Below are positions 2,768-35,287 of a stretch of DNA of 41,663 nt, in pieces. The notes beneath the pieces were generated by a model. The model had not been told where the DNA came from and made no database searches. It saw nothing but the letters and a program-made list of their open reading frames with translations. Source of the DNA: Candidatus Omnitrophota bacterium (GTDB lineage Bacteria; Omnitrophota; Gorgyraeia; Zapsychrales; JBDRMG01). The stretch lies in contig JBDRMG010000017.1 in the NCBI GenBank assembly GCA_043812495.1, forward strand, positions 1 through 41,663, given 5' to 3'. Position 1 is the first letter of the stretch. Each line of letters opens with the position of its first letter. A program made the translations under genes and the position numbers.

Positions 2768-3551
2768 CGCTTCTGGGGAAGTTCATCTTTATGGTTTTTC
2801 CTTCGCCGATATCCACGCTGACCAGTCGCTTAAGGACATTGACGTCAAAGACGCGGCCTTTACCTTCCAGTGTCGTGATCTTTTCACCCGGCCTCGGTAA
2901 ATTCTTGGCAAATTCTTTATAGACAGAAAACTCATAGGCCATGCAGCATTTGATGCGTCCGCAGACACCGGCGATTTTTGAAGGATTCAGCGGAAGATTT
3001 TGCTCTTTGGCCATTTTAATGGACAAAGCATGAAAGCCTTTCATATAGGATGAACAACATTGCTCCAGACCGCAAATTCCGAATCCGCCGATAATTTTGG
3101 CCTTATCCCGGACGCCGATTTGCCTTAATTCAATCCTGACTTTAAAAATCTTGGCTAAATCTTTGACCAGCGCGCGGAAATCCACGCGACCCTCTGATGT
3201 GAAAAAGAAAATGACTTTACTCGCATCAAAGGTATATTCAGACTTCACAATCTGCATGTCGAGCTTTCGCTCATCAATACTTTTAAGGCAGACATCAATG
3301 GCCTCTTTGGCCTTTTGTTGATTCTCTTTTATCCTCGTTTGATCGTCCGCGGTCGCCACCCTCAAAACTTGACCCTCGGATTCCTGGTCAATATGCTCCT
3401 CGGCTTGAACATTGGAGATCACAGCGCCGTATTCCATGCTGCGATCCACCTGCACAATCACGCAATCATCCCGATTGCAGTCTATATTGTTGAGATCGCA
3501 TAAAGAGACAGGCCCGAATTCACCGATCTTGACTTGAATTAATTTTGCCAT
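2757..3551 (-). CDS. ricT: PSP1-domain protein RicT/YaaT (Fe-S regulatory subunit)
   Basis: RVDFRALVKDLA, RIELRQIGVRD, GICG..CC and CGRIKCC motifs; holB-yaaT-metG synteny. Confidence 0.9.
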   Translation of the reverse strand: MAKLIQVKIGEFGPVSLCDLNNIDCNRDDCVIVQVDRSMEYGAVISNVQAEEHIDQESEGQVLRVATADDQTRIKENQQKAKEAIDVCLKSIDERKLDMQIVKSEYTFDASKVIFFFTSEGRVDFRALVKDLAKIFKVRIELRQIGVRDKAKIIGGFGICGLEQCCSSYMKGFHALSIKMAKEQNLPLNPSKIAGVCGRIKCCMAYEFSVYKEFAKNLPRPGEKITTLEGKGRVFDVNVLKRLVSVDIGEGKTIKMNFPRSDEN

Positions 3552-4516
3552 ATTCTCTCCTTAAGAAGTGTCAGGGCCATTTTGACGTTAAGATTTTCCT
3601 TCAATAATTTTGAAGTCGCAACAAGATCATGGAGAGTGCGTTCGGTCTGATCCCATGAGTATTTTTTCTCGCTTCTTATCAAATCGTCGATGCGGTCCTG
3701 ATGAATAAGCTGAGTCTTATGAATATGCAATTTGAGCAAGAGGATATCTCTGAACCAGCTCAAGAGAACATTCAGGGTTTCCTGGATATCTTCTTTTTCC
3801 TGACCCGCGAGGAAGTCACGGGCAAACGTTTCGCTCAAAGGCGCAAAGATAAAATGGTCGATCATAGTATTTTTCTTTTCTAGAAACTTCTGATCGTAAA
3901 GGATAAGCGCCCTTTTGGAGCAACCTTGGGCGAAGGTGGCAAGAAAATGACTCGACGCCTCAGAGAGCTGATAATCGTTTCTTAATTGATCCTTCAACTG
4001 CCGGCAAGATAAAGGAAAGAAATTAATGACCTGACACCTGGATTTGATAGTGCTTAAAACTTTATCGGGAAACGTTGTCGTCGATAAAAGCAGACTTCTA
4101 TCCGAAGGTTCTTCCAAGGTTTTTAACAACGCATTGGCTCCCTCTAAGGTTAACTGGTCAATGCTTTTGATAATAAAAACCTTTCTTTTGGCCTCAAAGG
4201 GTTTCAGCTGGATTTCCTTCAGAAGTTGACGGACCTGATCAATCTTAATCTTGAGCGCATCTTCGGAACTGATCACATGAACATCCGGATGATTCCCGCG
4301 GTTGATTTTCACGCAGGATGGACAAACATCGCAATACCCATTGCTGGTGCTTTGTTCGCAGTTGACCAATTTGGCAACCCCTAAGGCTGTTTCTGATTTT
4401 CCGATATCCTGCGGCCCGACAAATAAATAAGCATGCGCCAGTTTTTGTTCTTGAATGAAGCAACGAAAACGCTTAAGGATATCTTGATGGCCTGAGGTTT
4501 CTTTAAGTTGTATCAT
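3539..4516 (-). CDS. holB: DNA polymerase III delta' subunit
   Basis: AHAYLFVGP, Zn cysteines (C..CDVCPSC), HPDVH, ANALLKTLEEP, TIKSRC; follows tmk. Confidence 0.93.
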   Translation of the reverse strand: MIQLKETSGHQDILKRFRCFIQEQKLAHAYLFVGPQDIGKSETALGVAKLVNCEQSTSNGYCDVCPSCVKINRGNHPDVHVISSEDALKIKIDQVRQLLKEIQLKPFEAKRKVFIIKSIDQLTLEGANALLKTLEEPSDRSLLLSTTTFPDKVLSTIKSRCQVINFFPLSCRQLKDQLRNDYQLSEASSHFLATFAQGCSKRALILYDQKFLEKKNTMIDHFIFAPLSETFARDFLAGQEKEDIQETLNVLLSWFRDILLLKLHIHKTQLIHQDRIDDLIRSEKKYSWDQTERTLHDLVATSKLLKENLNVKMALTLLKERIWQN

Positions 4517-5127
4517 TTGAGCAAACGATCAATATGGTCGCGGACAACTTTTTCGATCTTTCCCTTATCGCCGTCGACTCTAATAACTTTGATTCTTTTT
4601 GGATTCTTGCGGGCCAGCTGCAAGTAACCTTTTCTGACGCGCTTGTGATAGTCAAAGGATCTTTGTTCTATTCTGTCTTTATTGGCCCCTACGCGACGCA
4701 AGCCCTCTTGAGTCGAGAGATCAAAGACAAGAGTCAAATCCGGCTTGATCTGGGCTGTGGCAAAACGCCCAATTGCTCGGATGGCCTCAAGGTTGACACC
4801 GCACCCATACCCTTGGTACGCTAAAGTCGAATCCAGAAAACGATCACAGAGAACAATCTTTCCTTTTTTCAGGGAAGGAAGAATAATTTCTTCAACCAGT
4901 TGAGCGCGAGCCGCCATATACAGTAAGGTCTCAGAGGCCTTGCACATTTTCCTATTGCCGGGATCCAGAAGAATTGTTCTGATTTTCTCGCTGATAACCA
5001 CGCCGCCGGGCTCGCGGATCTGAATGACATTTTTCTTCTTGGAACGCAAGTACCGCACCAGAAGTTCCATTTGCGTGCTCTTGCCGGAGCCTTCCGCGCC
5101 TTCAAATGTAATGAATATCCCTTTCAT
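4513..5127 (-). CDS. tmk: Thymidylate kinase
   Basis: FITFEGAEGSGKSTQ P-loop, REPGG, DRFLDSTLAYQG. Confidence 0.97.
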   Translation of the reverse strand: MKGIFITFEGAEGSGKSTQMELLVRYLRSKKKNVIQIREPGGVVISEKIRTILLDPGNRKMCKASETLLYMAARAQLVEEIILPSLKKGKIVLCDRFLDSTLAYQGYGCGVNLEAIRAIGRFATAQIKPDLTLVFDLSTQEGLRRVGANKDRIEQRSFDYHKRVRKGYLQLARKNPKRIKVIRVDGDKGKIEKVVRDHIDRLLK

Positions 5128-6536
5128 ATCTTTTTTATTTTCTGACCTTCTTTTGTATCTTCGACAAGAATCCCTTTTTTGCTAAGTTGATCGCGTAGTT
5201 CATCCGCTCTCTGAAAATTCTTCTTCTTGCGTGCCAATTGTCTTTCCTCCAAAAGCTTCTTGACTTCCTCCGACAAGGAAATGTCTGATACGTCCGGGAT
5301 AACACCGAAAATGTTTAGCATTTTCTCAATGTAATCTCTGGCACAGCTAAGAACAAGTCTTTTGGGCTCACTATCTTCCTCGAGCATCTTGGTTTTGCAC
5401 CAATTAACGATAGCAAATAGCCATGAAAGAGCTTTGGGCGTGTTGAAATCATCATCCATCGATTCTAGAAATTTTGAGAACAACAACTCAGGCTCAATCC
5501 CCTTATCAAACTCACGAAGCCGCTCGATATACTTTTCTTGATAAATTCCTTTCAGTTCCCTTAAGACATCATTAAAGTCTTTGTAAGCATTCTCTGCAAT
5601 ATTCATTTTTTCTTGCGTATAATCAACCGCGCTTTGGTAGCGGGCAGAAAGAAAAAATAGCTTAAGGCTATTGGCATCATATTTACTAAGAGCGTCTTCA
5701 ATAGTAACAAAATTTCCCAGAGATTTCGCCATCTTCTGCCCGTTGATGGTCAAAAGCCCATGATGAATCCAGTATTTGGCAAATGGTTTTCCGGTCAAAG
5801 CCTCGGCCTGGGCAATTTCATTTTCATGGTGAGGAAAAATCAGGTCCTGTCCGCCGCCGTGGATATCAAGCGTTTCGCAATCTAAGTGTTTTAAGCTCAT
5901 CACAGAACACTCAATATGCCAGCCCGGGCGTCCTTGGCCCCATGGACTATCCCAGAAAGGCTCATTTTCCTTGGATTTCTTCCACAGCGCAAAATCCAAA
6001 GGATCTTTTTTCTTTGTATCTTTCTCGATACGAACGGCCTCCATCATCTGTTCGATGCTTTGGCCGGAAAGTTTCCCGTAATCTTTGAACTTCCGCACGC
6101 TAAAATACACATCACCGTCTTTTTCATAAGCATAGCCTTTGTCCATCAATGCCTTGATGTGTTCAATCATGCCGGGAATATTTTTCGTCGCCCGCGGCTC
6201 GCGAAGAACATCATACCGGATATCTAAATCCTTCAGGTCTTTCTGGTAGGAGTTGATATTTTCGTTAACGACCTCTTCCCAGCTTTTATTCAGCTCAACA
6301 GCCCGGTTGATAATTTTGTCGTCGATGTCGGTGATGTTGCGGATAAAATTGACTTGATAACCTCTGTATTCAAGATACCGCCAAATCACGTCAAATATAT
6401 ATAAACTCCGGGCATGACCGATATGACATTTGTCATAGACCGTAACCCCACAGGTGTACATATTCACGGTCTTGCCCTTACGGGGAACAAGTTCTTCTTT
6501 TTGTTTGGAGAGAGAATTATGAATGTAAACTGCCAT
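5124..6536 (-). CDS. cysS: Cysteine--tRNA ligase
   Basis: MYTCGVTVYD..HIGH, DFALWK, GRPGWHIECS, HHENE, KMAKS, MDDDFNTP. Confidence 0.97.
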   Translation of the reverse strand: MAVYIHNSLSKQKEELVPRKGKTVNMYTCGVTVYDKCHIGHARSLYIFDVIWRYLEYRGYQVNFIRNITDIDDKIINRAVELNKSWEEVVNENINSYQKDLKDLDIRYDVLREPRATKNIPGMIEHIKALMDKGYAYEKDGDVYFSVRKFKDYGKLSGQSIEQMMEAVRIEKDTKKKDPLDFALWKKSKENEPFWDSPWGQGRPGWHIECSVMSLKHLDCETLDIHGGGQDLIFPHHENEIAQAEALTGKPFAKYWIHHGLLTINGQKMAKSLGNFVTIEDALSKYDANSLKLFFLSARYQSAVDYTQEKMNIAENAYKDFNDVLRELKGIYQEKYIERLREFDKGIEPELLFSKFLESMDDDFNTPKALSWLFAIVNWCKTKMLEEDSEPKRLVLSCARDYIEKMLNIFGVIPDVSDISLSEEVKKLLEERQLARKKKNFQRADELRDQLSKKGILVEDTKEGQKIKKI

Positions 6537-6555
6537 AGGACGATAAGACGAGAAT

Positions 6556-7239
6556 TTATTTTCTCTTCAATTCATTCTCAAGTGAATCAATTCTTTTCTG
6601 CAGCTCGTCAATCTGCTGTTTGACAGGATCAAGGATGTGCACATGATCCATCATGGTATCGATTTTCCTGCCGTCTTGCTTGGTAACACGTCCGGGAACG
6701 CCGACAACGGTTGAATTGGGAGGAACATCATGAATAATGACGGCGTTTGCACCGATATACGAATTGTCACCGATCGCTATATTGCCAAGGATCTTCGCTC
6801 CGCTTCCGACAACGATATTGCTGCCTAAAGTCGGATGACGTTTTCCTGTTTCTTTTCCGGTTCCGCCGAGCGTAACGCCTTGAAAAAGAGTAACGTTATT
6901 ACCGACGATGGTTGTCTCCCCGATCACCACCCCCATGCCGTGATCAATAAAAAATCCTTGTCCGATTTGGGCGCCGGGATGGATTTCTATACCCGTGAAA
7001 AAGCGGGACAACTGAGACAAGGCCCTTGAGAAAAACGGCATGTTGAGTATCCACAGAAAATGAGCCATGCGATGTGACACAATGGCATGAAAGCCGGGAT
7101 AAAGAAAAATAATTTGCCAAGCATTTCTCGCCGCAGGATCTTTTTCTCTCGCTGCTTTGATTTCCTTGGCGAACGCTATCCTCACCAAAAGAACAAAAAG
7201 AACAAATAAACCAAACAGTACAAGAATAATATTGATCAT
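6556..7239 (-). CDS. cysE: Serine O-acetyltransferase with N-terminal hydrophobic extension
   Basis: DPAA, GIEIHPGA, IDHGMGVVIGET, LGGTGKETGKRHPT. Start placed at ATG 7239 (GAGGAG SD; ATGA overlap with the ispF stop). Confidence 0.93.
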   Translation of the reverse strand: MINIILVLFGLFVLFVLLVRIAFAKEIKAAREKDPAARNAWQIIFLYPGFHAIVSHRMAHFLWILNMPFFSRALSQLSRFFTGIEIHPGAQIGQGFFIDHGMGVVIGETTIVGNNVTLFQGVTLGGTGKETGKRHPTLGSNIVVGSGAKILGNIAIGDNSYIGANAVIIHDVPPNSTVVGVPGRVTKQDGRKIDTMMDHVHILDPVKQQIDELQKRIDSLENELKRK

Positions 7240-7721
7240 GGCGACTCCTCTTTTGCGCATAAAGCAACGGCGTAGGCGGCCATGGCTTCCTCGCGCACAC
7301 CGAAACCCACGCCTTCCTGGGTTGTGGCTTTGATATTGATCTGATCTTTCTTAATCGATAATGTTTTAGCAATGACGGAACGCATTTCGTCTTTGAAGGG
7401 TTGCAGTTTTGGTTCTTCTGCAAGAATAACGCTATCGATAGAGGAAACACGAAATCCTTTTTTAGCCAAGAGATCTTTGACGCGTGAAAGTAAGACAACG
7501 CTAGAGATATTTCGATAGGCCTCATCCGTGTTGGGAAAATGCTCCCCGATATCCCCTTCGCCGGCGGCACCCAAGAGCGCATCGCAGATTGCATGCAGAA
7601 GAATATCGGCATCCGAATGGCCGTCGAGCCCCAAGGCATAAGGAATCTCCACGCCGCCGAGAATAAGTTTTCTTCCCTTTTTCAGACGATGAATATCATA
7701 TCCCATGCCTACACGCTGCAT
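7236..7721 (-). CDS. ispF: 2-C-methyl-D-erythritol 2,4-cyclodiphosphate synthase
   Basis: RVGMGYDIH, GHSDAD..LHAICDALLGA, DIGEHFP, NIKATT. Confidence 0.97.
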   Translation of the reverse strand: MQRVGMGYDIHRLKKGRKLILGGVEIPYALGLDGHSDADILLHAICDALLGAAGEGDIGEHFPNTDEAYRNISSVVLLSRVKDLLAKKGFRVSSIDSVILAEEPKLQPFKDEMRSVIAKTLSIKKDQINIKATTQEGVGFGVREEAMAAYAVALCAKEESP

Positions 7722-7725
7722 AAAA

Positions 7726-8415
7726 TCACCTGCTGTTTTGATTGTCCAATAAGGCCTCCGCCAAGCGGAGATCTTCCTGGGTTGTTATTTTGATATTGTC
7801 GTAACGTCCTTGAATCATTTTGACGCGGATGCCTAATTTCTCCACCAATACAGCGTCGTCCGTAACATTTAAATCCTGATTTTCTTCATGCGCCTTGGCG
7901 ATGATATCTTTTGAAAAAATCTGCGGAGTTTGAACTTCCCATAACTGATTCCTATCGGGCGTCTTTCGGACCGTCATGTCGTGAACATTGATTTCTTTAA
8001 TCGTAGGTTTCACAGGCACACCCACCACAACAGCTTTCTCTTTTTGCGCTAAGATAATCGCTTCCCGCACCAGTTCTTTTCTAGCAAAAGGCCGCACGCC
8101 ATCATGAATAAGGACATAGGATGTTTTCTCATCTAAATTTTTTAAACCGTTACGAACCGATTGGCAACGCGTTGGACCTCCCTCAACGATTCTTACGCTC
8201 TTGTTGATTTTATATTTATTCAATGCGCGCTTAAATTCATCGACATGCTCACGGCTCACAACAAGAATCACGCTGTCTATCAGAGCAACTTCGTCAAAGA
8301 CCTGAAGGCAATAAATGAATAAGGGTTTTTTCTTAAGGTTAATAAGCGGCTTTACGACGGGCCCCGGCAATCGGCTTCCCGGGCCTGCGGCCACGACGAT
8401 AGCTTGCGTGCTCAT
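7726..8415 (-). CDS. ispD: 2-C-methyl-D-erythritol 4-phosphate cytidylyltransferase
   Basis: AAG.GSR, VLIHDGVRPF, VQTPQ, TDDA, NIKITT.EDL. Confidence 0.96.
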   Translation of the reverse strand: MSTQAIVVAAGPGSRLPGPVVKPLINLKKKPLFIYCLQVFDEVALIDSVILVVSREHVDEFKRALNKYKINKSVRIVEGGPTRCQSVRNGLKNLDEKTSYVLIHDGVRPFARKELVREAIILAQKEKAVVVGVPVKPTIKEINVHDMTVRKTPDRNQLWEVQTPQIFSKDIIAKAHEENQDLNVTDDAVLVEKLGIRVKMIQGRYDNIKITTQEDLRLAEALLDNQNSR

Positions 8416-9398
8416 TTATTATTCTGTGGTTTGGCAAAAATCATTTTTCCAGCCTGGGTCTGCAGCACAGAGGTCACGATGACCTTCATTTTCTGCCCGA
8501 TATATCTTCTGGCATCACTCACCACAATCATAGTGCCGTCATCCAAATACGCCACAGCCTGGTTAGGTTCCTTGCCTTCTTTCAGCAATCTCACATCCAT
8601 TATTTCACCAGGAAAAACAATCGATTTAACGGCATTGGCTAGTTCATTTACATTCATGATCGTCACCCCTTGAATAGTGGCGATACGGTTCAAATTAAAA
8701 TCCGTCGTGCATATCCTTGCTTCCATGAGTTTAGCCAGCCTGATCAATTTGGCATCCGTTTCTTCGTTCGTTAAGCCTTCGTCTTCATGAATCTTGACAT
8801 CCAGAGAAGAATCTTTCTGCATAGAACGTAGAATCTCCATGCCTCGTCGACCCCGCTGGCGCTTATTGGAGTCTTCCGAGTCAGCAATGTGCTGCAATTC
8901 CTGCAAAATAAATCTGGGCACAACTATCCTGGCTTCAAAAAATTTCGTTTTGCAGACATCGGCAATCCGTCCATCGATAATAGAACTTGTATCCAAAAGC
9001 ACAACGTCTTGCCTCAAATCCTGTCGCTTAAAGCGAACATAGGGAATAATAAGATTAAACTCGTCCTTCCCTCGCAGTGCCATGACGGCACCCAAATAAG
9101 AAAACGTCAGAGTCAGTACAACCTTGAGGATGGAATGAACAACGTCGCCTAAAGGTAAAAGGGACAAAATGTCCGTAATCAATTTAGCCATAATCATGCC
9201 GAGGATAAGACCAAAAACCATACTCGATAAACCGCTAACGGAAACCCGACGCATATTAGCCTCAAGAAATATCAATCCGAGCCCGGCCAAGCATCCAAAG
9301 CCCACACCTATAAGAGGTTGATCGCTGATCAGACCGATCTGATACCCCACGGTTCCGCTAATGATAAGAAAGAAAACCCGAACAAAAATTAAAGTCAT
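8412..9398 (-). CDS. Membrane PIN/TRAM-domain protein (YacL-like)
   Basis: Four N-terminal TM helices, LDTSSIIDGRI PIN motif, C-terminal TRAM (GKEPNQAVAYLDDGTMIVV, VTSVLQTQAGKMIFA). Start moved to ATG 9398 behind an AAGGGGAG SD. Confidence 0.92.
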   Translation of the reverse strand: MTLIFVRVFFLIISGTVGYQIGLISDQPLIGVGFGCLAGLGLIFLEANMRRVSVSGLSSMVFGLILGMIMAKLITDILSLLPLGDVVHSILKVVLTLTFSYLGAVMALRGKDEFNLIIPYVRFKRQDLRQDVVLLDTSSIIDGRIADVCKTKFFEARIVVPRFILQELQHIADSEDSNKRQRGRRGMEILRSMQKDSSLDVKIHEDEGLTNEETDAKLIRLAKLMEARICTTDFNLNRIATIQGVTIMNVNELANAVKSIVFPGEIMDVRLLKEGKEPNQAVAYLDDGTMIVVSDARRYIGQKMKVIVTSVLQTQAGKMIFAKPQNNK

Positions 9399-9413
9399 AC
9401 AACTCCCCTTTCT

Positions 9414-9596
9414 TTTCAATGAGGCCCGCACTTGCGGAATGATAATGCCCGCTATTTTCTTAATATTTTGCGAGGTCTCGTCAATTCGACTTTGTCGAAT
9501 TGACGGAAACGCAAGTGCGAGGCCGAATTGACCCCCACACCAATTATTTCATAATTGGTGTGGGGGACAAAATAAATACAATTATAATATTTCCTT
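9414..9596 (-). promoter_or_regulatory. Conserved promoter/structured-leader cassette, copy 1 (upstream of the PIN/TRAM gene)
   Basis: Shares three blocks with 20850-20992 (plus strand): tttcaatRaggcc, ggccgaattgacccc and aattataatatttcctt, separated by hairpins of different sequence. Confidence 0.7.
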
Positions 9597-9641
9597 AAAT
9601 AAAGACGGATAAATCCTTGAACAGATAATTCATGCTGTTCT

Positions 9642-11003
9642 TTAAAGACGATCTAGGGCTTCTTTGACATTTTTAACAGAGATCACATCCAAGCTGCCCT
9701 TTTTAAGATCGTTTTTGCGCTTAAGATTATTCTCAGGCATAATGCACTTTTTAAAACCCAGTTTCTGTGCCTCATTGAGGCGAACGGCGATCTGGCTTAC
9801 GCTTCGTACTTCCGACGACAAGCCAACTTCGCCCAGAACAACGACTTCTGAGCTAATTTTTTTATCCAGAAGAGCGCTTGCTACGGCAACCGCAACACCT
9901 AAGTCTGCCGCCGGGTCCTCAATCTTTACACCCCCAACAACATTCAAGAAAATATCTTTGTCTTGAAGGTTCAAACCGATCTTTTTCTCAAGTACGGCCA
10001 CCAATAGCGCCAATCGGTTGACATCAAACCCTTGCGCTTTTTGGCGTGCGATGCCAAAGTTCGCCCGACTCACCAAACCCTGGATTTCAACACAAAAAGG
10101 CCTGGTCCCTTCCAGAATCGGCACAACCACAGAACCGGATGAATCTTTGGCGCGTTCCGAAAGAAAAATTTCGGATGGATTCAAAACTTCAATTAAGCCA
10201 CCGGACGTCATCTCGAAAACACCGATTTCATTTGTTGAGCCAAATCGATTTTTCATCGCACGCAAGATGCGGTATGTCGAATAACGCTCTCCTTCGAAAT
10301 ACAAAACGGTATCCACCACATGCTCCAACACGCGCGGGCCCGCCAGTGTCCCTTCTTTGGTCACGTGACCGATGATGAATAGGGCCACGGTCTTGGCTTT
10401 GGCTGTTTGCGTCAAAATATTGGCACATTCTCGGACCTGGCTTACGCTTCCCGGACTCGATGCGATATCCGGATGATAAATCACCTGGATCGAATCAATA
10501 ATAACAATTTCCGGCTGAATCTTATCAATATACTCGAGAATGAGCTGCAGGTTGATCTGGTTGACAATATAGATATTGTCGCGCCCGTTGATGGCAATGC
10601 GGTCGGCCCGCATTTTAGTCTGCTGAACAGATTCTTCACCGCTTACATAAAGAACCTTGTGTCCCTTTTGGCTCAAAAGACAAGCTATTTGTAAGGATAA
10701 TGTCGATTTTCCTATTCCCGGGTCACCGCCGATGAGCGTAACGGATCCCGGAACCACGCCGCCTCCAACAACGCGATCAAATTCAATCAGCGTTGTCTGA
10801 TAACGTTGCTTAGTTTCTGAAGGCACATCCAAAAGGCATACCGGAGCTTCCCGAGCGAACACCTGCTCATGATGTCCTGGAGCCTCAAAAGAAGCAACCT
10901 CTTCAACCAATGTGTTCCAATTCTGACAGCTGGGGCATTTACCCAGCCAGGCTGGAGATTGCGCTCCGCAATTCTGGCAGATAAAAAGTGTTTTTGTCTT
11001 CAT
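9642..11003 (-). CDS. radA: DNA repair protein RadA/Sms
   Basis: C4 zinc finger, GGDPGIGKST, KNRFG, Lon-like C-terminus. Confidence 0.97.
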   Translation of the reverse strand: MKTKTLFICQNCGAQSPAWLGKCPSCQNWNTLVEEVASFEAPGHHEQVFAREAPVCLLDVPSETKQRYQTTLIEFDRVVGGGVVPGSVTLIGGDPGIGKSTLSLQIACLLSQKGHKVLYVSGEESVQQTKMRADRIAINGRDNIYIVNQINLQLILEYIDKIQPEIVIIDSIQVIYHPDIASSPGSVSQVRECANILTQTAKAKTVALFIIGHVTKEGTLAGPRVLEHVVDTVLYFEGERYSTYRILRAMKNRFGSTNEIGVFEMTSGGLIEVLNPSEIFLSERAKDSSGSVVVPILEGTRPFCVEIQGLVSRANFGIARQKAQGFDVNRLALLVAVLEKKIGLNLQDKDIFLNVVGGVKIEDPAADLGVAVAVASALLDKKISSEVVVLGEVGLSSEVRSVSQIAVRLNEAQKLGFKKCIMPENNLKRKNDLKKGSLDVISVKNVKEALDRL

Positions 11004-11009
11004 GTCCTA

Positions 11010-11990
11010 TTAAAATTCAATGCTATGTTCAACACCCAAAAGGCCTTCTTCTTTGTTGGTCACATCCGAATCATCGGGTAAACGTAGACGATACTTAAAT
11101 TCTGTTGTTCCTCTCCGTCCTTCTTCGTGTTTACGTTTAATGGTCCATTCTCGCTGTATCTGGCTTTCCCCAATAACAGGGGCTTTCGTTAAAGTGTTCA
11201 TGCCTTGAGCAAGATTACACCCCTTGGATAAGTCAACATATCCTCCCAGATTAAAGCTTAAACCATCCGTCTGTGTTGCGCTTGAGTCCGATAATTGAAG
11301 AGTGGGATACAGACCGTTAAAACGAATAAGAAAGTTATCGTAATCCAAATCCCCTACAATCCCTTCATAAGAACTCAAACCGCCGGAGATGATCATGCGA
11401 TTCAGGAATCCTGATAACCGAATTCGACCTGAGGCAAAACCGGATAATTTCATATCTTCATCCGGACAACCCAAGAGCAGAGAAAAATCCGTCAGACGAA
11501 TATCCTCGAGTCCGACCTTGATATCAAGATCATAAGGAGCGAATAAACTTATATACCCGTCACAATGCAAGGCCTGCCAAGATACACTGTTGAGGTACAA
11601 GCGTTGATCTTTAATCTCAAAAGAGCCGTTCATTTCACCGACGGGTTTATAATTAATGAGCGTATATCGGCTTTCTATGGCTCCCCGTATGAATCGCTGT
11701 CCGTTATGATTTTGACCGACCGTCTCAATTTTGCTTTCGATTTCCGTGGATAGATCAAAGTGAGAAAGCGCAAGATGGTCAATCTTTGCAGCCAGATGAT
11801 ACTGGTTCTGCGCAATAAACTTAAAATGAATAACGGCTGCACCCTGACCTTTGAACCCTAGATTCACATCAGCTTTTTTCTCAAGAAAATCTATCGTTCC
11901 TTCGAAAGAAGCAAGAATCCCCGCATCAGCAACAGCTGGGTACATTAAGAAAATAAGGCAGATCCCGTAGCAAGCCAACCATTTTCCCAT
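11010..11990 (-). CDS. Exported hypothetical beta-rich protein (possibly AsmA/TamB-like)
   Basis: Signal peptide (..AVADA), Gly/aromatic alternating beta strands, C-terminal Phe; fills the clpC-radA gap exactly. Confidence 0.6.
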   Translation of the reverse strand: MGKWLACYGICLIFLMYPAVADAGILASFEGTIDFLEKKADVNLGFKGQGAAVIHFKFIAQNQYHLAAKIDHLALSHFDLSTEIESKIETVGQNHNGQRFIRGAIESRYTLINYKPVGEMNGSFEIKDQRLYLNSVSWQALHCDGYISLFAPYDLDIKVGLEDIRLTDFSLLLGCPDEDMKLSGFASGRIRLSGFLNRMIISGGLSSYEGIVGDLDYDNFLIRFNGLYPTLQLSDSSATQTDGLSFNLGGYVDLSKGCNLAQGMNTLTKAPVIGESQIQREWTIKRKHEEGRRGTTEFKYRLRLPDDSDVTNKEEGLLGVEHSIEF

Positions 11991-14411
11991 TTATTCAAAG
12001 ACCAATTGATCATTCTTACGGATCACCTTAACAACACTTCCCTCTTTAAATTGACCGCTGATGATCTCCTCGGCTAAGGAATCTTCCAGTAAACGCTGAA
12101 TCGTGCGTTTTAAAGGCCTGGCTCCGAACACAGGATCGAAACCCTTTTCCACCAAAAGTTCTTTGGCCGCCTTGTCGAGAGAAAGAGTGATCTGCTGTTC
12201 TTTCAAGCGCTCGGCTACTTCTTGGATTTCAAGGTCCACGATTTTGTTAAGATCGTCTCTCGAGAAAGAGCGAAAGACAACGATATCATCGATGCGATTG
12301 AGGAACTCCGGCTTAAAGCTCTTCTTGACTTCTTCCAGCAATTTTTCTTTCATCACCTGGTAAGAAATGTCCTCGGTTTGGGTTCCGAAACCCAGCGAGC
12401 CTTTCTTGCGGATTAAATCCGCGCCGACATTGGACGTCATGATAATAATCGTATTTCGAAAATCCACCTTGCGTCCGAAACTATCCGTCAGGCGTCCTTC
12501 CTCAAAAACCTGCAACAAGATGTTAAAAACATCCGGATGGGCCTTCTCGATTTCATCCAAAAGAATAACCGAATAAGGTCGACGCCTCACCCGTTCCGTG
12601 AGCTGTCCTCCTTCTTCATAACCTACGTATCCTGGCGGTGCACCGATCAAGCGCGAGACGTTAAATTTATCCATATATTCCGACATATCAATTTGGATCA
12701 ACGCATTCTCATCGCCAAACATGAATTCAGAAAGAACTCGCGCCAAAAGAGTTTTTCCAACGCCGGTCGGCCCTAAGAAAATAAATGATCCGCTCGGCCG
12801 GCGAGGATTCTTAATGCGTGAACGCGACCGTCTTACCGCACGCGCAATAACGCTAATCGCTTCGGCCTGACCAATGACCATCTGGCTGAGCTGATCCTCC
12901 ATTTTTAAAAGCTTTTCACTTTCCTTCTGTTCCAGGCGGATCAAAGGAATTTTTGTCCACTGGGACACAACACGCGCAATGTCTTCTTCTTCAAGCGTCG
13001 GCATCAGATTATCTCTTTCTTTGGACCAATCTGACCGCATTTTATCCAATGATTCCCGTGTAGCTCTCTCTTGATCGCGCATTTTGGCCGCTTTCTCGAA
13101 ATCCTGGCTCTTGATGAACGCCTCTTTCTCTTTTCTGAGATTTTCAATTTTTTCTTCCAAATCTTTGATCTCTTTAGGCACAACCATGGTCTTGAGTCTG
13201 GCGCGCGATCCTGCTTCATCCACAATATCAATCGCTTTATCCGGCAAAAATCGTCCGGAAATATAACGCTCGGATAAACGCACCGCGGCTTCGATGGCCG
13301 CATCGGAGAATTTCACCCGATGATGCGCCTCGTACTTGTCGCGAAGGCCCTTAAGAATTTGAATGGCCTCATCCACCGAAGGCGGATCGACCATGATGGT
13401 CTGAAAACGTCTCTCCAAAGCAGAATCCTTCTCGATGTGCTTGCGGTATTCATCCAAGGTTGCTGCGCCGATGCATTGGATTTCTCCTCGAGCTAAGGCC
13501 GGTTTCAGGATATTGGCCGCATCAATCGCTCCCTCAGCCGCGCCCGCACCCACCAAGGTATGTAATTCATCGATAAAGAGAATCATTTTGCCCGAACGCT
13601 TGATTTCATCCATAATGGTCTTGATTCTTTCCTCAAACTGACCGCGATATTTTGTTCCGGCAATCATCAAAGCCAAATCCAGCACAATAATGTTTTTGTC
13701 TCTCAGGACCTCGGGAATATCGCCATCGACGATCAGCTGAGCCAATCCTTCGACAATAGCGGTTTTTCCGACCCCGGCTTCTCCCAAAAGTACGGGATTA
13801 TTTTTTGTCCTTCGGCTTAAGATCTGCACGATTCTTTCGATCTCGTTCTTGCGGCCGATAACAGGATCGAGTTTTCCTTCTCGGGCCAATTTATTCAAAT
13901 TCCGGCCATAGGCATCAATCGCGGGTGTCTTACCTGTTTTCACAGCTTCCTGGTTATTAAAGCCGGGAATACCAGAACCCAGAAGCGTCATGACTTCATT
14001 TCTGACTTTATTCAAGTCGCAACCGAGATTTAATAAAACGCGGTACGCCATCCCTTCGCCCTCTTTGATTAATCCCAGCAAAAGATGTTCGGTACCGATA
14101 TAATTATGACCTAAGGCACGGGCTTCTTCCGCCGAGAGTTCCAAAGACTTTTTTGACCGAGGGGTAAAGGGAATATCCCCCAAAACTTGCGTTTGCGGAC
14201 CCGGCTGGACAAGTTTTTCCACTTCGATACGAATGGTTTCAAGATCAAGTCCGAGTTTCTGCAGCACGGCCGCGGCCACCCCTTCTCCCTCGCGAATCAA
14301 ACCCAAAAGAAGATGCTCCGTTCCGATATAATCGTGGTTGAGCCGTCTTGCTTCCTCTTTGGCCAGCACAATGACCTTCCTTGCTCTTTCTGTAAAACGA
14401 TTAAACATCAT
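11991..14411 (-). CDS. clpC: ATP-dependent Clp protease ATP-binding subunit ClpC
   Basis: Duplicated Clp-N repeats, two AAA+ modules ([16 protein letters not shown]), UVR coiled coil, LGF ClpP-docking loop; follows mcsB. Confidence 0.96.
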
Positions 14412-15463
14412 TAACCTCCTAATAATTTTGAACGAATAAGATTTGCCCTTTTGGCATCCCGCTCTGCCGCGGATAACTTTTTTCCTTCTAATTTCTGAAG
14501 ATGCGCAGGCTGAATCATGATGAATAATTCATTGATTTTGGCCTTATCGACATCCTGTACGATTCCGACATCAACGCCCAAGCGAACCATCGACAAAAGC
14601 TCGACGGTCTCCTGACTGGAAATAATATGAGCGTTCTTGAGTATGCCCGTTGAACGACAGACCTTATCCTCGATCATGGGCCTATTTTGGACCAGAAGGG
14701 TTTGACGAGCCTGCTCTTCTTGTTCAATGACCTGACGGATCAAGCCGGTGATATTCTGAATGATTTCAATCTCGCTATGCCCTAAAGAAATCTGGTTAGA
14801 AATCTGAAAAAAATTCCCGCTCGATTGCGTTCCTTCTCCGTAAAATCCTCGGCTGGCAAAATTCAACTTGGAGATGGCCGCAAGAATCTTATTGATTTGC
14901 TTGGTCATTACCAAAGCCGGTAGGTGAAGCATAACGGAACCGCGCATACCTGTTCCCGTATTCGTAGGGCAAGCGGTCAGATAGCCCCAGTCGGGCGAGT
15001 AGGCATATTGAAGTTCTTCGGACAGAGAATTATCTATGGCGTCGATAATATTCCATGTCTCCTGAAGATTAAAACCGGATTGCATCACCTGAATCCGCAA
15101 ATGATCTTCTTCGTTAATCATCACCGAGAGAATCTCTTCTTTAGAAACGATCAAGGCCTTGCCGTGCCCCTGGGCCGCATGTTCATGGCTCATCAAGTGC
15201 CGTTCGATGAGAAATTGTTTGTCGATATTATCCAACTCCGTCATTCTTAAAAGAGTTGAGTCCTTGAAAAAATCAATATGGCTGACGGCCTTCTTGACAT
15301 CTTCAACCACATTGTCCAGTGATTTCTTATCGGACCGATTAGGAAAAGGAATCCGATCAAAATTACGGGCCAAACGAACGCGCGAAGACATCACGATATT
15401 GGAATAGGGCCCTGTTCCTTTCAGCCATTCTCCCGTATGATGGATAAAATCATCTACTTTCAT
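14411..15463 (-). CDS. mcsB: Protein-arginine kinase McsB
   Basis: [38 protein letters not shown]. Confidence 0.95.
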
Positions 15464-15465
15464 CG

Positions 15466-15975
15466 TTACTCTTTCTGATTGTTTTGTTTATTCTCTAGTT
15501 GACGGATTTGATCCCGAATCTTAGCCGCCTCTTCAAAGTTTTCCATCTCAATCATTTGACGCAATTGATCCTTGAGTTGCTGCAATCCTGTAACCGTTTT
15601 TTCGATTGCTTTGGACATCTTCACGGGCGCCTTGCCGTAATGTTTACCCGATCCGTGGATTTTTTTGAGAAGAACATTTAAATGTTCGCCAAAAGATGTA
15701 TAACACTCGCTGCAACCCAAGCGTCCAAACTTTCGGAAATCCTCATAGGAAAGGCTGCAGTTGGTACAGGATAGTTTGATCTTCTCGACGGTCTTGGGTT
15801 GCTTGCTAAAATCCGTAAGACCCGCCAAAAGATCGGCTAAACCGAATTGTTGCTCCATTTGTACGCTTTTCTCACGCGCGCAATCTTCGCACAGATGCAG
15901 CTCCGTCATCTGGTCATCGACAATTTCGGTCAAATGAACCGTGGCCTTCTTTTTTGCGCATACATCACACTGCAT
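15466..15975 (-). CDS. mcsA: McsB activator McsA (CxxC motifs plus UVR domain)
   Basis: CDVC, LCEDCA, CTNC, GRLGCSECY, ENFEEAAKIRDQI. Confidence 0.93.
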   Translation of the reverse strand: MQCDVCAKKKATVHLTEIVDDQMTELHLCEDCAREKSVQMEQQFGLADLLAGLTDFSKQPKTVEKIKLSCTNCSLSYEDFRKFGRLGCSECYTSFGEHLNVLLKKIHGSGKHYGKAPVKMSKAIEKTVTGLQQLKDQLRQMIEMENFEEAAKIRDQIRQLENKQNNQKE

Positions 15976-15990
15976 AGCATCCTCCGGATT

Positions 15991-16854
15991 CTAATAACGC
16001 ACGCCGTCTTTTTTCGTCAACTCTTTAAATTGGCCCATAAGCTTAAGGGTGACTTTTCCCGGCTTCCCGTCGCCGATCAGGCGACCGTCCACTTTAACAA
16101 CCGGAATGACTTCCGCGGCTGTTCCGCTTAAGAAACATTCGTCCGCCACATAAACTTCATGTCGCGTTAAGTACCCTTCAATTGTTTTGATCTTAAGTTT
16201 CTCGGCTAATTCCAGCACGGCCTCCAACGTAATGCCTTTTAATCGGCCCTGAGCCGGTGTATACAAAATCCCTTTTTTGATAATAATGATATTATCGCCG
16301 GTGCATTCGGCCACAAAACCGTGAGGATCAAGCATAATAGCTTCGTCAAAACCGGCATTTTCGGCCTCGATCTTGGCAAAGATATTATTCAGATAGTTCA
16401 GGGACTTAAGCCGAGGATTGATAGCCTCCGGCATATTCCTCACCGTGGGCACCGTAATAATCTCTAAACCCTTTTTGTAAAGTTCAGCAGGATATAAGGT
16501 AATTTTATCCGTAATGATGATCACATTTTCTTCGCCTCTACACTTTTTCGGATCCAATCCGAGATCGCCTTCTCCGCGCGTCACCACAAGCCGAATATAG
16601 GCATCGTTCAAATGATTCGCCTCGAGCGTCTTGATAATGGCCTGAACCATCTGTGGCTTCGAAAGGGGAATCCGCAACATCATGGTATGGGCTGTTTCAT
16701 AGAGCCGATCGATGTGTTCCTTCAAGCGAAACACGAGCCGATGGTAAGAACGGATTCCCTCAAAAGCTCCGTCCCCGTACAAAAGCCCATGATCAAACAC
16801 CGAGATCTTTGCATCTTTTTTGTCCGTGAGTTTTCCGTCTAGATAAACCTTCAT
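15991..16854 (-). CDS. ilvE: Branched-chain amino acid aminotransferase (class IV PLP)
   Basis: DHGLLYGDGAFEGIR, KSLNYLNN, LKGIT, GTAAEVIPV; start moved to MKVYLDG. Confidence 0.92.
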   Translation of the reverse strand: MKVYLDGKLTDKKDAKISVFDHGLLYGDGAFEGIRSYHRLVFRLKEHIDRLYETAHTMMLRIPLSKPQMVQAIIKTLEANHLNDAYIRLVVTRGEGDLGLDPKKCRGEENVIIITDKITLYPAELYKKGLEIITVPTVRNMPEAINPRLKSLNYLNNIFAKIEAENAGFDEAIMLDPHGFVAECTGDNIIIIKKGILYTPAQGRLKGITLEAVLELAEKLKIKTIEGYLTRHEVYVADECFLSGTAAEVIPVVKVDGRLIGDGKPGKVTLKLMGQFKELTKKDGVRY

Positions 16855-16870
16855 CGCGCCCTCTCTTTGT

Positions 16871-17536
16871 TTATGGGAGTATTTTACCGTCACGCATGCG
16901 CAGTTTTCGCTTGACTAAGGCCGCGATGTGCTCATCATGCGTCACGATCACTAATGTTTGTTTATGTTCTCTGTTGAGTCTCATCAATAAATCCATAATG
17001 TCCCGGCCATTTTGAGAATCCAAATTTCCTGTCGGCTCATCACAGAAAATAATCTTTGGGTCATTGATGAGAGCCCGTGCAATCGCCACCCGCTGCTGCT
17101 CACCTCCGGAAAGCTGATTGGGCTTATGGTGCGCCCTGTCCTTGAGGCCGATTTGACCCAGCAATTCCTGCCCCTTAGATTTTAATTTTGCTCTTGCGCC
17201 CCCCTGCACCAATCCCGGCAGAATAATATTTTCCAAAGCGGTCAACTCCGGTAAAAGATGATAAAACTGAAAAACAAAACCAACTTTTTCATTTCGGATT
17301 TTCGAACGACGGCGGTCGTTCAGGGAATAAATCTCCTCACCATCCAGGCGAACCTGACCTTGCGTCGGCCGATCTAACCCGCCTAAAATATGCAAGAGGG
17401 TCGATTTACCGGCTCCCGAAGGCCCGACAATCGATAAAGTATCACCTTCTTGAATTACGAGATCAATGCCTTTTAAGACATACAAAGGCCGCGTCAGATG
17501 ATTATAGGTCTTATGAATATTGAATGTTTCAAGCAT
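16871..17536 (-). CDS. lolD: Lipoprotein-releasing ABC transporter ATPase
   Basis: [42 protein letters not shown]; adjacent to lolC/E; start at MLETFNI. Confidence 0.9.
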
Positions 17537-17543
17537 AGTGTCA

Positions 17544-17666
17544 GTGAAACTCCATGGCCTAACGGCCATGACATCTCTGCTTTTGGCGTTTCGACGTTCC
17601 GCCTTCGGCGGAAGTCGGAACCCCGACGCCAGTCCGCCACAATCCTTGGCGGACTGGCGTCGGGGT
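17544..17666. repeat. Composite palindromic element (IS200/IS605-right-end-like hairpin plus REP-like hairpins)
   Basis: catggcc-taac-ggccatg (17553-17570); ttccgcc-ttc-ggcggaa; perfect 20-bp inverted repeat 17620-17639/17647-17666 containing GTCCGCCA..TGGCGGAC. Confidence 0.8.
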
Positions 17667-17674
17667 AAACCAAA

Positions 17675-18874
17675 TTATTCGTAGCGCAAAGCATCCACGG
17701 GTTCTAGTCGAGCCGCCTTCATGGCCGGATAAATGGTTGCGCAACAACTAATGACAATGGCACATGCCACAATTAAAGCAATATCTCCAAACTGTAAGAT
17801 TACAGGCAAGTGGTCAAAATAATAAATATCCTGCGGAAGCTGAACAAATTGATACTTCTTTAACAAGAGACTTAAACCAATACCGCCGATTAATCCAAAA
17901 ATAACACCCGTTAGTCCTATGACCAACCCCTCAAAGGCAAAGATGCGAAAGATCCCCCATCGTGAAATGCCGACGGATTTTAATATACCGATATCTTTGA
18001 TCTTGCTTGTGACCGTCACAATCAGCGTACTAAAAATATTAAAGGACGCCACCAAAATAATAAGCGTGAGAATCACAAACATTGCTGTCTTTTCAAGCTT
18101 TAAGGCTTCAAAGAAACTTTGGTTCGCCTCCATCCATGTCCGAACCAAAAAGGAATACCCCAAGAGGGCATGAATTTCATTCTTCACGCGTTTAGCCTGA
18201 TAAATGTCTTTTAATTTAACGGCGATTCCTGTGACGACATCATCCGGCAATTGAAAAAGCTCTTGGGCCTTCTTAATGGTTACGAGGACTAAACTCATAT
18301 CATAGTCGTATTTTCCGGATTTGAAGATCCCCTGGATCTTCACTTGATGCCGCCATCCTTCTCCGGAAAGCCCAGAGGCCGGAGCAATCAATGTGATCAC
18401 ATCACCCACGGAATATCCGAAATAATTGGCCAACTCGCTTCCGATCAAAATGCCTTCGTCGTTTAAATCATCAACGGAGCCTTGGACCATGTAGGTCCCA
18501 AGTTCCGTGACTTTCTTGGCCGAGGACGACTCGATGCCCCGAAGGCTCAGGGCCATGGCTTCACCTTCGTTTTCTTCTAAGAAAATAAATCTTTGAATAT
18601 ACGGCGTCGTCCCGACAATCCCATCAATACCTGAAATCTCTTGGCGCACGCGGTTATAGTCACGGATACCGATTTCTTTCTCAATCACAATATGCGATGT
18701 CGTTCCGATAATTTTATCGCGCAATTCAACATCAAAACCGGTCATGACGCCAATAATCACAATGAGCGCCATGACGCCGATGGCAACCCCTGCAATCGAA
18801 ACAAAACTGATCGCGGTCAAAAATCCCTTTTTGGCGGTTAAATATTTAAAGCTAAGCCAATTTTCATAACTCAT
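17675..18874 (-). CDS. Lipoprotein-releasing ABC transporter permease (LolC/E family, single copy)
   Basis: GVAIGVMALIVIIGVMTGF, LVASFNI.STL, KDIGILKSVG, YPAMKAARLEPVDALRYE. Confidence 0.9.
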   Translation of the reverse strand: MSYENWLSFKYLTAKKGFLTAISFVSIAGVAIGVMALIVIIGVMTGFDVELRDKIIGTTSHIVIEKEIGIRDYNRVRQEISGIDGIVGTTPYIQRFIFLEENEGEAMALSLRGIESSSAKKVTELGTYMVQGSVDDLNDEGILIGSELANYFGYSVGDVITLIAPASGLSGEGWRHQVKIQGIFKSGKYDYDMSLVLVTIKKAQELFQLPDDVVTGIAVKLKDIYQAKRVKNEIHALLGYSFLVRTWMEANQSFFEALKLEKTAMFVILTLIILVASFNIFSTLIVTVTSKIKDIGILKSVGISRWGIFRIFAFEGLVIGLTGVIFGLIGGIGLSLLLKKYQFVQLPQDIYYFDHLPVILQFGDIALIVACAIVISCCATIYPAMKAARLEPVDALRYE

Positions 18875-20504: not shown

Positions 20505-20840
20505 TTATTTTTTTCTTTCATACCGCGCAATTTTCACCGTGGTCAGTTCTCCATCGGACCAAGGCCAGATCATGCCGCAATGAAAATCATTGTCTTGCTC
20601 GCGAAAATACAAGGTTTGGTCTTCTCGTATTCCGCCAAAGGCAGCCGCATGCTGCTGAGCTTCCCTGCTGGGCCGCTGTCCGGCCGGCTTGAAGGGTACT
20701 CCAAAATATTGCTCTAAAAGCGGATGGACTTGATTGAGATTACTAACGCGAACAACAAACTCGAGATAATTTTCATCGTCTTTGCGTATCTCTTCGACCT
20801 TTAATTCCTTAGCCTTCGAAAGTAATTCTTTGAATAGCAT
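20505..20840 (-). CDS. Hypothetical protein (111 aa)
   Basis: ATG 20840 preceded by an AAAGGAG SD; protein-like composition; no motif recognised. Confidence 0.75.
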   Translation of the reverse strand: MLFKELLSKAKELKVEEIRKDDENYLEFVVRVSNLNQVHPLLEQYFGVPFKPAGQRPSREAQQHAAAFGGIREDQTLYFREQDNDFHCGMIWPWSDGELTTVKIARYERKK

Positions 20841-20849
20841 GACTTCTCC

Positions 20850-20992
20850 TTTCAATAAGGCCATGGTTTATGGAGTCCGCCATTGATTCAGTGGCGGACG
20901 ACATAAACCATAGGGCCGAATTGACCCCGAGCTCGCCATTGATTCAGTGGCGAGCGAGGGGAATTAGGCAAATTAAATTATAATATTTCCTT
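20850..20992 (-). promoter_or_regulatory. Conserved promoter/structured-leader cassette, copy 2
   Basis: Same three blocks as 9414-9596. Both arms carry a 25-bp ..cgccattgattcagtggcg.. palindrome. TTGCCG lies 17 nt upstream of the TATAAT. Confidence 0.7.
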
Positions 20993-20994
20993 CA

Positions 20995-21810: not shown

Positions 21811-21811
21811 T

Positions 21812-34845: not shown

Positions 34846-35112
34846 TTACAACTTTTTGAGTTTATCTTTATCGCCGTCGATTAATGCTAATTTCTTACAT
34901 CGTGTCCAACCTTTAATTTAAGCCCCACGTTTTAAAGCCTCTTGTTTTGTTAAATAGGCTTCTCGATAAACAATATCAATCGCACCTAGAGATTTTGCGT
35001 AATGTCCACCTTTACCCGAACGATGTTCTCTCAGTCGACGATCCAAATTATTGGTTATTCCCGTATAAAGACTCAAATCTTCACATTGAATAATATACAT
35101 ATATCATGTCAT
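34846..35112 (-). pseudogene. GIY-YIG endonuclease (UPF0213/YhbQ-like) pseudogene
   Basis: One 89-codon frame MT*YMYIIQCEDLSLYTGITNNLDRRLREH...EALKRGA*IKGWTRCKKLALIDGD...; in-frame TGA (35104-35106) at the usual Trp and TAA (34918-34920) at the usual Gln. Confidence 0.85.
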
Positions 35113-35216: not shown

Positions 35217-35287
35217 CTGCCCAGCCAGGATTCGAACCTGGAAAACGAGATCCAAATTCTCGCGTGTTACCATTACACCACCGGGCA
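35217..35287 (-). tRNA. tRNA-Gln(TTG)
   Basis: Acceptor stem TGCCCGG/CTGGGCA (U1-A72), D arm GTGTAATGGTAACAC, anticodon arm CGAGA-ATTTGGA-TCTCG, T arm CCAGG-TTCGAAT-CCTGG; CCA not encoded. Confidence 0.93.

Follow-up and report, generated by a model that had tools for sequence, protein, structure and literature searches.

Correia elements and bacterial MITEs are short, non-autonomous repeats that lie beside genes, fold into hairpins and can bring promoter-like or ribosome-binding-site-like signals with them. Single REPs are palindromes of 20-40 nt. Bacterial MITEs are the subject of reviews such as PMC3184786 and PMC10969869. The closest known systems to the repeat described here are Ssn/SRM and REP/BIME. 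In the account given by Chenal et al. (Nat Commun 2025, PMC11893778), single-domain GIY-YIG nucleases of the Ssn type are flanked by hairpin repeats and bind and cut these hairpins only as single-stranded DNA, and the authors term the layout of gene plus repeats IS-like. The present repeat shares with the Ssn/SRM systems of that account a single-domain GIY-YIG gene of ~85-100 codons with inverted hairpin repeats on both sides (here a predicted one), tens or hundreds of gene-less intergenic repeats, the IS-like layout and a copy number that tracks the presence of the nuclease. It differs in architecture, since SRMs are described there as single hairpins of 20-50 nt (PMC11893778), whereas here two long hairpins are joined, in the source genome, to an AT-rich block, and in that the unit has a ribosome-binding-site-like end flush with gene starts. 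The dRS3/NTS core ATTCCC-N8-GGGAAT had no match in the source genome, and no sequence likeness to NTS/dRS3 was found.

With REP, BIME and REPIN sequences and their RAYT (Y1) transposases (on which see Nunvar 2010, PMC2817692, and Bertels and Rainey 2011, PMC3116915), the repeat has in common a high number of intergenic palindromes, a mosaic of alternating orientation, pairing at the DNA level and a gene with flanking repeats of its own. Here, however, the linked gene encodes a GIY-YIG nuclease and not a Y1 transposase, the Y1 genes of the genome carry other repeats, and the two units in the window measure 145-185 nt, which is longer than single REPs. Palindrome arrays of the REP/BIME kind are present, whereas a RAYT gene flanked by the same repeats was absent among the four Y1 genes read. 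The likeness to Correia elements and MITEs lies in a short non-autonomous repeat beside genes, a hairpin fold and possible expression signals; the differences are that no target-site duplication was detected, that there is no classical transposase partner and that the inverted ends are themselves hairpins. The common form of the repeat has unlike ends, not the terminal inverted repeats with target-site duplication of a classical MITE, and the search for target-site duplications in the source genome gave nothing above shuffles: with 4-mers, the best of the 252 offset combinations reached 3 of 67. An assignment to the IS200/IS605 PATE or TnpB-linked elements finds no match either, PF07282 having 0 hits in this genome.

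The locus that we analysed lies in a window of 41,663 nucleotides (the whole stretch of DNA under analysis) from an Omnitrophota genome of 1.94 Mb in 66 contigs, 90% complete (G000). We consider it probable that the locus belongs, as a single copy, to a dispersed and mosaic family of hairpin DNA repeats in the Omnitrophota, and that it is likely a gene-less derivative of a cassette for a GIY-YIG nuclease of ~85 residues. An initial sequence-only reading had noticed a common architecture at two sites, and the minus strand bears it out: at 9396-9600 and at 20838-20995 an AT-rich block with TATAAT is followed by a CCCC...GGGG hairpin, by TCAATTCGGCC... and a longer hairpin closed by GGCCTYATTGA, by an AGGAG-like tract and by an ATG (Table 1). 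The three scaffold blocks pointed out in that reading are exact in both copies save for a single Y position, and in window counts they exceed chance. GGGGTCAATTCGGCC is exact at 9521-9535 and 20914-20928, with 3 matches in the window at up to 2 mismatches (0.03 expected), the third being 17146-17160 with 2 mismatches; AAGGAAATATTATAATT is exact at 9580-9596 and 20976-20992, the sole 2 window matches at up to 3 mismatches (0.23 expected); and GGCCTYATTGAAA, at 9414-9426 and 20850-20862, accounts for 2 exact matches among 7 at up to 2 mismatches (3.66 expected).

Table 1. Positions, on the numbering of the window, of the parts of the two copies and of the gene starts that follow them.
Feature	Position	Strand	Basis or remark
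Copy 1, AT-rich 5' block AAGGAAATATTATAATTGTATTTATTTTGT	9567..9596	-	TATAAT = 9581-9586
Copy 1, hairpin 1, CCCCCACACCAATTAT-GAA-ATAATTGGTGTGGGGG	9532..9566	-	sequence and fold
Copy 1, hairpin 2, TCAAT-TC-GGCC ... GGCC-TC-ATTGA, 116 nt	9416..9531	-	long form with nested insert
Copy 1, nested inner hairpin CGTCAATTCGAC-AAA-GTCGAATTGACG	9479..9505	-	tip of hairpin 2; sequence and fold
PIN/TRAM gene start, Shine-Dalgarno-like AAGGGGAG and ATG	9403-9410 and 9396-9398	-	gene = 8412-9398
Copy 2, AT-rich 5' block	20962..20992	-	begins 2 nt past TAA stop of LpxI-like gene (20995-21858)
Copy 2, hairpin 1, CCCC-TCGCTCGCCACTGAATCAATGGCGAGCTC-GGGG	20925..20961	-	sequence and fold
Copy 2, hairpin 2, 73 nt, standard form	20852..20924	-	tip again a GCCACTGAATCAATGGC hairpin
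Copy 2, element-borne AAAGGAG tract and likely ATG (20838-20840) of 111-codon downstream small gene	20838..20851	-	

Both copies fold far more stably than expected by chance. Copy 1 forms its two hairpins at -52.4 kcal/mol (shuffles -20.4 +/- 3.1; z -10.5) and copy 2 reaches -39.6 kcal/mol (z -8.7). The loop of hairpin 1 in copy 1 had been read as ttc; the coding strand reads GAA, of which TTC is the complement. Hairpin 2 also has a further conserved helix, ACTTAYG/CRTAAGT, which the initial reading did not list. The gene 5' of copy 1 is RadA (TIGR00416, 600 bits) and that 5' of copy 2 is LpxI-like, both as had been guessed, whereas the PIN/TRAM label of the 328-residue protein downstream of copy 1 finds only a sub-threshold NCBIfam match to an ATPase; we keep PIN/TRAM as a gene label.

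The description of the architecture as a two-copy cassette holds inside the window and fails genome-wide. The central 15-mer has 54 matches at up to 1 mismatch in the source genome (reversed control, 0), and a census of paired motifs found 188 matches at up to 3 mismatches; for 119 of them a 3' closure that pairs correctly lies no more than 300 nt away. The 5' block is also present in 67 of these 119 complete units, and ~15 more units close by variants such as TAAAT/ATTTA. A covariance model of hairpin 2 (R1; 16 pairs), built from 30 copies (16 from the source genome and 14 from five others), matched at least 130 sites in the source genome (E <= 0.01) when 150 of the 710 candidates were scored; in the window it scored 74.6 bits at 20846-20928 and 57.1 bits at 9410-9535. 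The covariance model and genome search that the sequence-only reading had suggested yielded many further copies together with covariation. That reading's remark that the motif is no known riboswitch also held: an Rfam search of the window gave no family match to the element, and tRNA alone reached its gathering score.

The arms had appeared to be freely interchangeable. They prove instead to be recurrent hairpin families, as judged by clustering and by copies outside the scaffolds, and the element is a mosaic of modules, as in BIMEs. The hairpin-1 cores fall into 24 clusters, the largest being the CACACCAATTAT type of copy 1 (23 of the 97 classified), with 18 of the GCCCGCCACTGAATCAATGGCGGGC type. 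Clustering of the hairpin-2 tips chain-merged 100 units into a single group and is uninformative. The GCCACTGAATCAATGGC hairpin, which forms the tips of both arms in copy 2, has 125 sites in the source genome, 64 inside and 61 outside the 119 units, and the inner CGTCAATTCGA hairpin of copy 1 (CCGTCAATTCGA arm) has 47, with 22 inside and 25 outside. The 5' block likewise has other partners: it can run into different sequence, immediately precede a start codon, or stand as two inverted copies on either side of one hairpin. In one copy of the element, two half-units make up a perfect palindrome. In the source genome a 5' block with hairpin 1 also runs into other modules (GGGGTCAATGGTTCGAC..., GGGGTCAAACCCAGCGGGGAATCCCCGCC...) on contigs C8 (minus-strand index 76521), C43 (59353), C16 (minus-strand index 110961), C18 (18973) and C64 (minus-strand index 68914); GGGGTCAATGGTTCGAC and GGGGTCAAACCCAGCGGGGAATCCCCGCC may be further repeat families.

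The conserved junctions, which covary across genomes, had suggested a cis-regulatory RNA leader, in which two hairpins of the 5' UTR, by binding a ligand or a protein, would govern how the downstream gene is translated or how stable its message is. An RNA selected on its sense strand would be expected to accept G:U pairs and to reject A:C pairs. Over the gap-free portions of both hairpins, the isolated stem mismatches of the 119 units show no excess of G:T over A:C (33 against 55, beside 2606 Watson-Crick pairs), and for copy 1 the two strands form equally stable folds (antisense -52.8 kcal/mol, sense -52.4 kcal/mol). In alignment A1, 97.9% of cells pair, double changes occur at 7 of the 16 pairs, and the 480 cells hold 3 one-sided and 38 double changes. 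The covariation is real, of the palindromic-DNA kind, and pairing is demonstrably kept symmetrically on both DNA strands.

The placement of the units speaks in both directions. Relative to a set of crude longest-ORF calls (1546 ORFs, 88% coding), 76 of 119 units share the orientation of their downstream gene, 40 oppose it and 3 lie at a contig end. Taking both neighbours, 68 units lie between two co-oriented genes, 28 run against the genes on both sides, 15 have divergent or convergent genes around them and 8 are at a contig end. The excess of co-orientation is significant (binomial p = 0.001 for 76 vs 40; p = 5.5e-5 for 68 vs 28) and it is far from a rule. Since the orientation is non-random (68 vs 28), room is left for selection on expression or for a strand-specific step of insertion. 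Local GC skew labelled 1243 of 1442 genes as one strand; because the skew follows gene direction, replication-strand bias and gene direction are inseparable as the cause of the 2.4:1 excess.

Units occupy the space from a stop codon to the ribosome-binding site that follows, and for 68 of the 119 the end lies 60 nt or less from an ORF start. The distance from the unit to the start codon is 10-20 nt in sense copies, whose conserved end, ATTGAAAGGAG, supplies or abuts the Shine-Dalgarno tract that adjoins the closure of hairpin 2, so that the earlier observation of an element abutting the ribosome-binding site stands. Antisense copies keep a similar AAARGA end beside the stop codon of the gene on the opposite strand. 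At copy 1 the ribosome-binding site of the PIN/TRAM gene is probably native, because an AGGAGG-type site occurs at the same distance in relatives that lack the element. The sole ribosome-binding site at copy 2 is that of the element and, since the corresponding gene pair of the nearest relative (G001) abuts with no spacer, this site was brought in by the element.

A leader RNA conserved for its function would be hard to reconcile with the state of the orthologous sites. The interval from radA to the PIN/TRAM gene measures 243 nt in G000, against 2-107 nt in 12 relatives (28 nt in G001), and a search of these loci with R1 found no match in 12 of 12; in G001 the LpxI gene and the 119-codon small gene abut, with no element at that junction. 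The sites being empty in these relatives, both window copies are insertions in the lineage of G000, or else were lost in all the others. The three DNA runs that we searched contain the organism as fragments at ~2x, and no contig in them spans either boundary of copy 1; the single joint that appeared to skip the element is another copy with a different hairpin-2 tip. The orientation of units near genes, their proximity to ORF starts and the closure beside the Shine-Dalgarno tract are what an RNA leader would predict. Against these stand the 40 of 119 units opposite to the downstream gene and the 28 antisense to both neighbours, the empty orthologous sites, the symmetry of pairing and folding, the functionally unrelated genes downstream, the lack of an Rfam family and the full-length copies that hold a protein-coding gene inside hairpin 1 (see below). 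We therefore give the RNA-leader explanation almost no credence, and this half of the sequence-only reading has to be withdrawn on the counts of mixed orientation, empty sites, absent G-U preference and equal folding of both strands.

In two other genomes, copies were observed before homologues of the genes that follow the window copies. A scaffold copy lies directly 5' of a PIN/TRAM homologue in a genome of another order (G063, contig C14, locus 626-710), and an inverted pair lies 5' of a homologue of the small gene in G017 (contig C46, locus 1828-1987). Closer relatives have these sites empty. A measure of coincidence is to be expected where a genome holds tens of copies; chance may not explain these sites fully, and a site preference is possible. 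At a PIN/TRAM locus of G010 (contig C12, 1400-1510), a short frame resembling the N terminus of radA, ~30 codons by eye, precedes the gene; tblastn with the RadA of G000 gave no match in that locus.

The 5' block raised the further idea of a mobile expression cassette, and its two halves fared differently. Mobility is upheld in the form of a dispersed mosaic repeat that also has a gene-bearing form; the promoter half, which rested on a -10 box, is not, the -35 being at background level. An expression module of this kind would be mobile DNA whose 5' block acts as a -10-only promoter and whose 3' end acts as a ribosome-binding site, so that it would rewire the expression of the ~70 genes that it precedes. 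The observations consistent with it are the perfect TATAAT in 36 of 88 blocks, the AAGGAG-like 3' end that is conserved in antisense copies too, the ribosome-binding site supplied at copy 2 and the co-orientation excess described above. The block itself carries no -35, however, and among flanks a 4-of-6 match to TTGACA at 16-18 nt occurs in 15 of 88 blocks vs 12.7% of random genome positions, with 5 of 6 in 0 of 88. For the two window copies a sigma-70 promoter with -35 and -10 at 16-18 nt was found at neither from the element itself: the promoter scan left the TATAAT of copy 1 without a -35 partner and called copy 2 only with a -35, TTGCCG, borrowed from the end of the LpxI gene, and neither has a TG extension. 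The block occurs with no downstream gene as well, and as an inverted pair around one hairpin.

The block is also narrowly distributed. Its 21-mer core has 77 copies in the source genome when up to 3 mismatches are allowed, 13 being exact, whereas in 40 relatives of the same order it occurs 0-1 times per genome, no more than the reversed control. Judged on its sequence, the TATAAT block thus appears to be a module amplified only in G000; the -35 statistics, the promoter scan and the 40 relatives gave no promoter evidence, and a portable promoter is in our view an unlikely account of the repeat. We also considered that the block might be a decayed left inverted hairpin 2, and rejected this: local alignments scored 10.41 on average and shuffles 10.35 +/- 0.21.

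The hairpin itself is much more widespread. R1 finds hairpin 2 in 35 of 41 genomes of the order, with 0-72 copies in each relative (115 candidates scored per genome) and 9 in G001. The strict 15-mer gives a different impression, with 54 copies in G000 vs 0-4 in relatives and any match at all in 44 of 401 genomes of the phylum, and a burst confined to G000 had been considered on this basis; it was rejected, as R1 shows up to 72 copies in relatives and the 15-mer is rare there because the sequence has drifted. In other genomes the arms and the GC content differ, and the junctions GGGGTYAATTCG, ACTTAYG/CRTAAGT and CTCATTRA persist. A gapped pattern was then scanned against one genome per species: among the 80 loci listed, 75 score with R1, 69 of the 75 at 40 bits or more, and among the matches listed nearly all of these 75 come from metagenome-assembled genomes labelled Omnitrophota or, in third-party assemblies, Planctomycetia/Planctomycetales. 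The five listed matches in other phyla have no R1 score and are chance matches. A literature search covering journals outside subscription found such repeats in Omnitrophota nowhere described.

What links the repeat to a nuclease is its gene-bearing form. On contig C5 of the source genome, an intact GIY-YIG gene (24312-24563, minus strand) lies inside CCCCCACACCAATTAT...ATAATTGGTGTGGGGG, that is, between the hairpin-1 arms of window copy 1, with a complete hairpin 2 downstream of the gene and an inverted hairpin 2 upstream; the stop codon of the upstream gene falls within the inverted copy, and the downstream gene begins after AAGGAGG. The full-length form therefore reads inverted hairpin 2, left hairpin-1 arm, GIY-YIG gene, right hairpin-1 arm, hairpin 2. 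The same layout was found in G001 (contig C18; gene 56% identical, four stops, different locus), where the enclosing arms are again those of window copy 1, and in G010 (contig C12; one stop). The encoded protein scores 62.2 bits with Pfam GIY-YIG and matches the UPF0213 proteins 1zg2 and 1ywl in the PDB; an NCBIfam search with it returned no family at cut-off.

A site upstream of yebC shows how gene-less copies may arise. In G001 it holds a pseudogene and in G000 a remnant of ~70 nt between the arms, the left flank being common to both genomes, and in G000 both inverted copies of hairpin 2 and the hairpin-1 arms are present. The comparison shows, at the yebC site, the decay in situ of a nuclease cassette to a hairpin that has lost its gene. 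The association with the nuclease is not general: a flanking inverted pair of R1 matches was found at 3 of the 31 GIY-YIG loci searched, 2 of those 3 genes being pseudogenes, and the scaffold holds 1 of the 15 small GIY-YIG genes examined in the source genome. That genome has 16 GIY-YIG family matches, mostly frames of 60-175 codons, one of which is a pseudogene in the window.

Across the 41 genomes, R1 copy number correlates with the number of GIY-YIG matches (Spearman 0.54) and not with that of Y1 transposase matches (-0.09), kinship being uncorrected in both values. Exceptions to the former are G026, with 51 copies, and G038, with 29, each having the baseline of 2 GIY-YIG matches. To our knowledge, no GIY-YIG enzyme is known as a catalyst of transposition.

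The window pseudogene belongs to a different setting. This small GIY-YIG gene, with an internal TAA stop (34894-35103 and 35217-35287, minus strand), lies ~110 nt downstream of a tRNA gene, and the sequence of the tRNA 3' end (GGGCAGCA...) is repeated beyond the cassette. Other small GIY-YIG genes of the source genome, on contigs C29, C50, C66 and C51, also adjoin tRNA genes with duplicated tRNA 3' ends.

The resemblance to BIMEs invites the view that the hairpins are REP/BIME-type sequences mobilised by the genome's own RAYT-like Y1 (IS200-type) transposases. The alternating-hairpin mosaic and the DNA-level pairing fit such an origin, and Y1_Tnp is matched 7 times in the source genome, with four of the matches falling in open frames 221-334 codons long. 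Yet these four Y1 genes, read with their flanks, carry different inverted repeats of their own; copy number is unrelated to Y1 matches across genomes (the rho of -0.09 given above); five genomes with 13-49 copies have no Y1 match, among which G006, G008 and G038 have 49, 49 and 29 copies; and TnpB is without a match in this 90% complete genome. Mobilisation by the Y1 enzymes is thus highly unlikely.

The four RAYT-like genes lie at C2:46101-47079, C45:202-1198, C4:1222-2215 and C47:51912-52575 and are longer than usual RAYTs. The inverted repeats that bracket them (GGGGTCAGGTCTCGACTT..., GGGGACGTTGATGA..., CCAATTACAAACCCGCATTGTAATTGG) are particular to each gene and have no relation to the scaffold. 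Beside the gene on C45, an open frame (2932-20080) exceeds 5700 codons and extends as far as the end of the contig.

The link to a nuclease could also mean that the repeats are not selfish and are kept by the host as domesticated cut sites, at which Ssn-like nucleases would act on incoming or replicating single-stranded DNA. Such a role has been proposed for Neisseria, and Chenal et al. (PMC11893778) report it for NTS and SsnA in the account cited above. The conservation of the hairpin-2 junctions across the order and beyond, together with the many small GIY-YIG genes of the source genome, would agree with this proposal. Copy number, however, ranges from 0 to more than 100 among related genomes, 2 of the 3 scaffold-linked nuclease genes are pseudogenes, and the occupancy of sites differs between sister genomes. 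Because of this range, these pseudogenes and this variable occupancy, neutral or selfish turnover fits better than a maintained host function, and we regard domesticated targets as distinctly improbable.

We thus return to the dispersed mosaic repeat derived from a nuclease cassette and ask how it may spread. By analogy with Ssn, copies would spread as single-stranded DNA hairpins that are recognised and cut in trans by the GIY-YIG nuclease, and the action of the nuclease on hairpins extruded in single-stranded DNA could seed copying or recombination. Hairpin families may nest in one another's loops or recombine, which we propose as the source of the seemingly interchangeable arms. The AAGGAG-like tract at the end of the unit, which the downstream gene can use, may be the reason why copies persist in operons. 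A bolder proposition, which we put forward as a tentative and rather doubtful one, is that the repeat represents a new class of transposable element: single-stranded DNA hairpins would be moved by an Ssn-like GIY-YIG nuclease of ~85 residues in place of a transposase, and ends reaching from stop to start codon, which would bring a replacement ribosome-binding site and, in G000, a portable -10 box, would allow essential operons to be colonised harmlessly at more than 100 sites.

Since the units covary, fold very stably and abut ribosome-binding sites, they are easily mistaken for structured RNA leaders, and searches for RNA motifs in Omnitrophota should mask them first, as DNA repeats. With the observations presented here, the recently described association of small GIY-YIG nucleases with hairpin repeats reaches an uncultured phylum and comes to include an architecture composed of two hairpins. 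If the nuclease truly drives the spread of these units, it would represent a mechanism of mobility so far unshown in bacteria.
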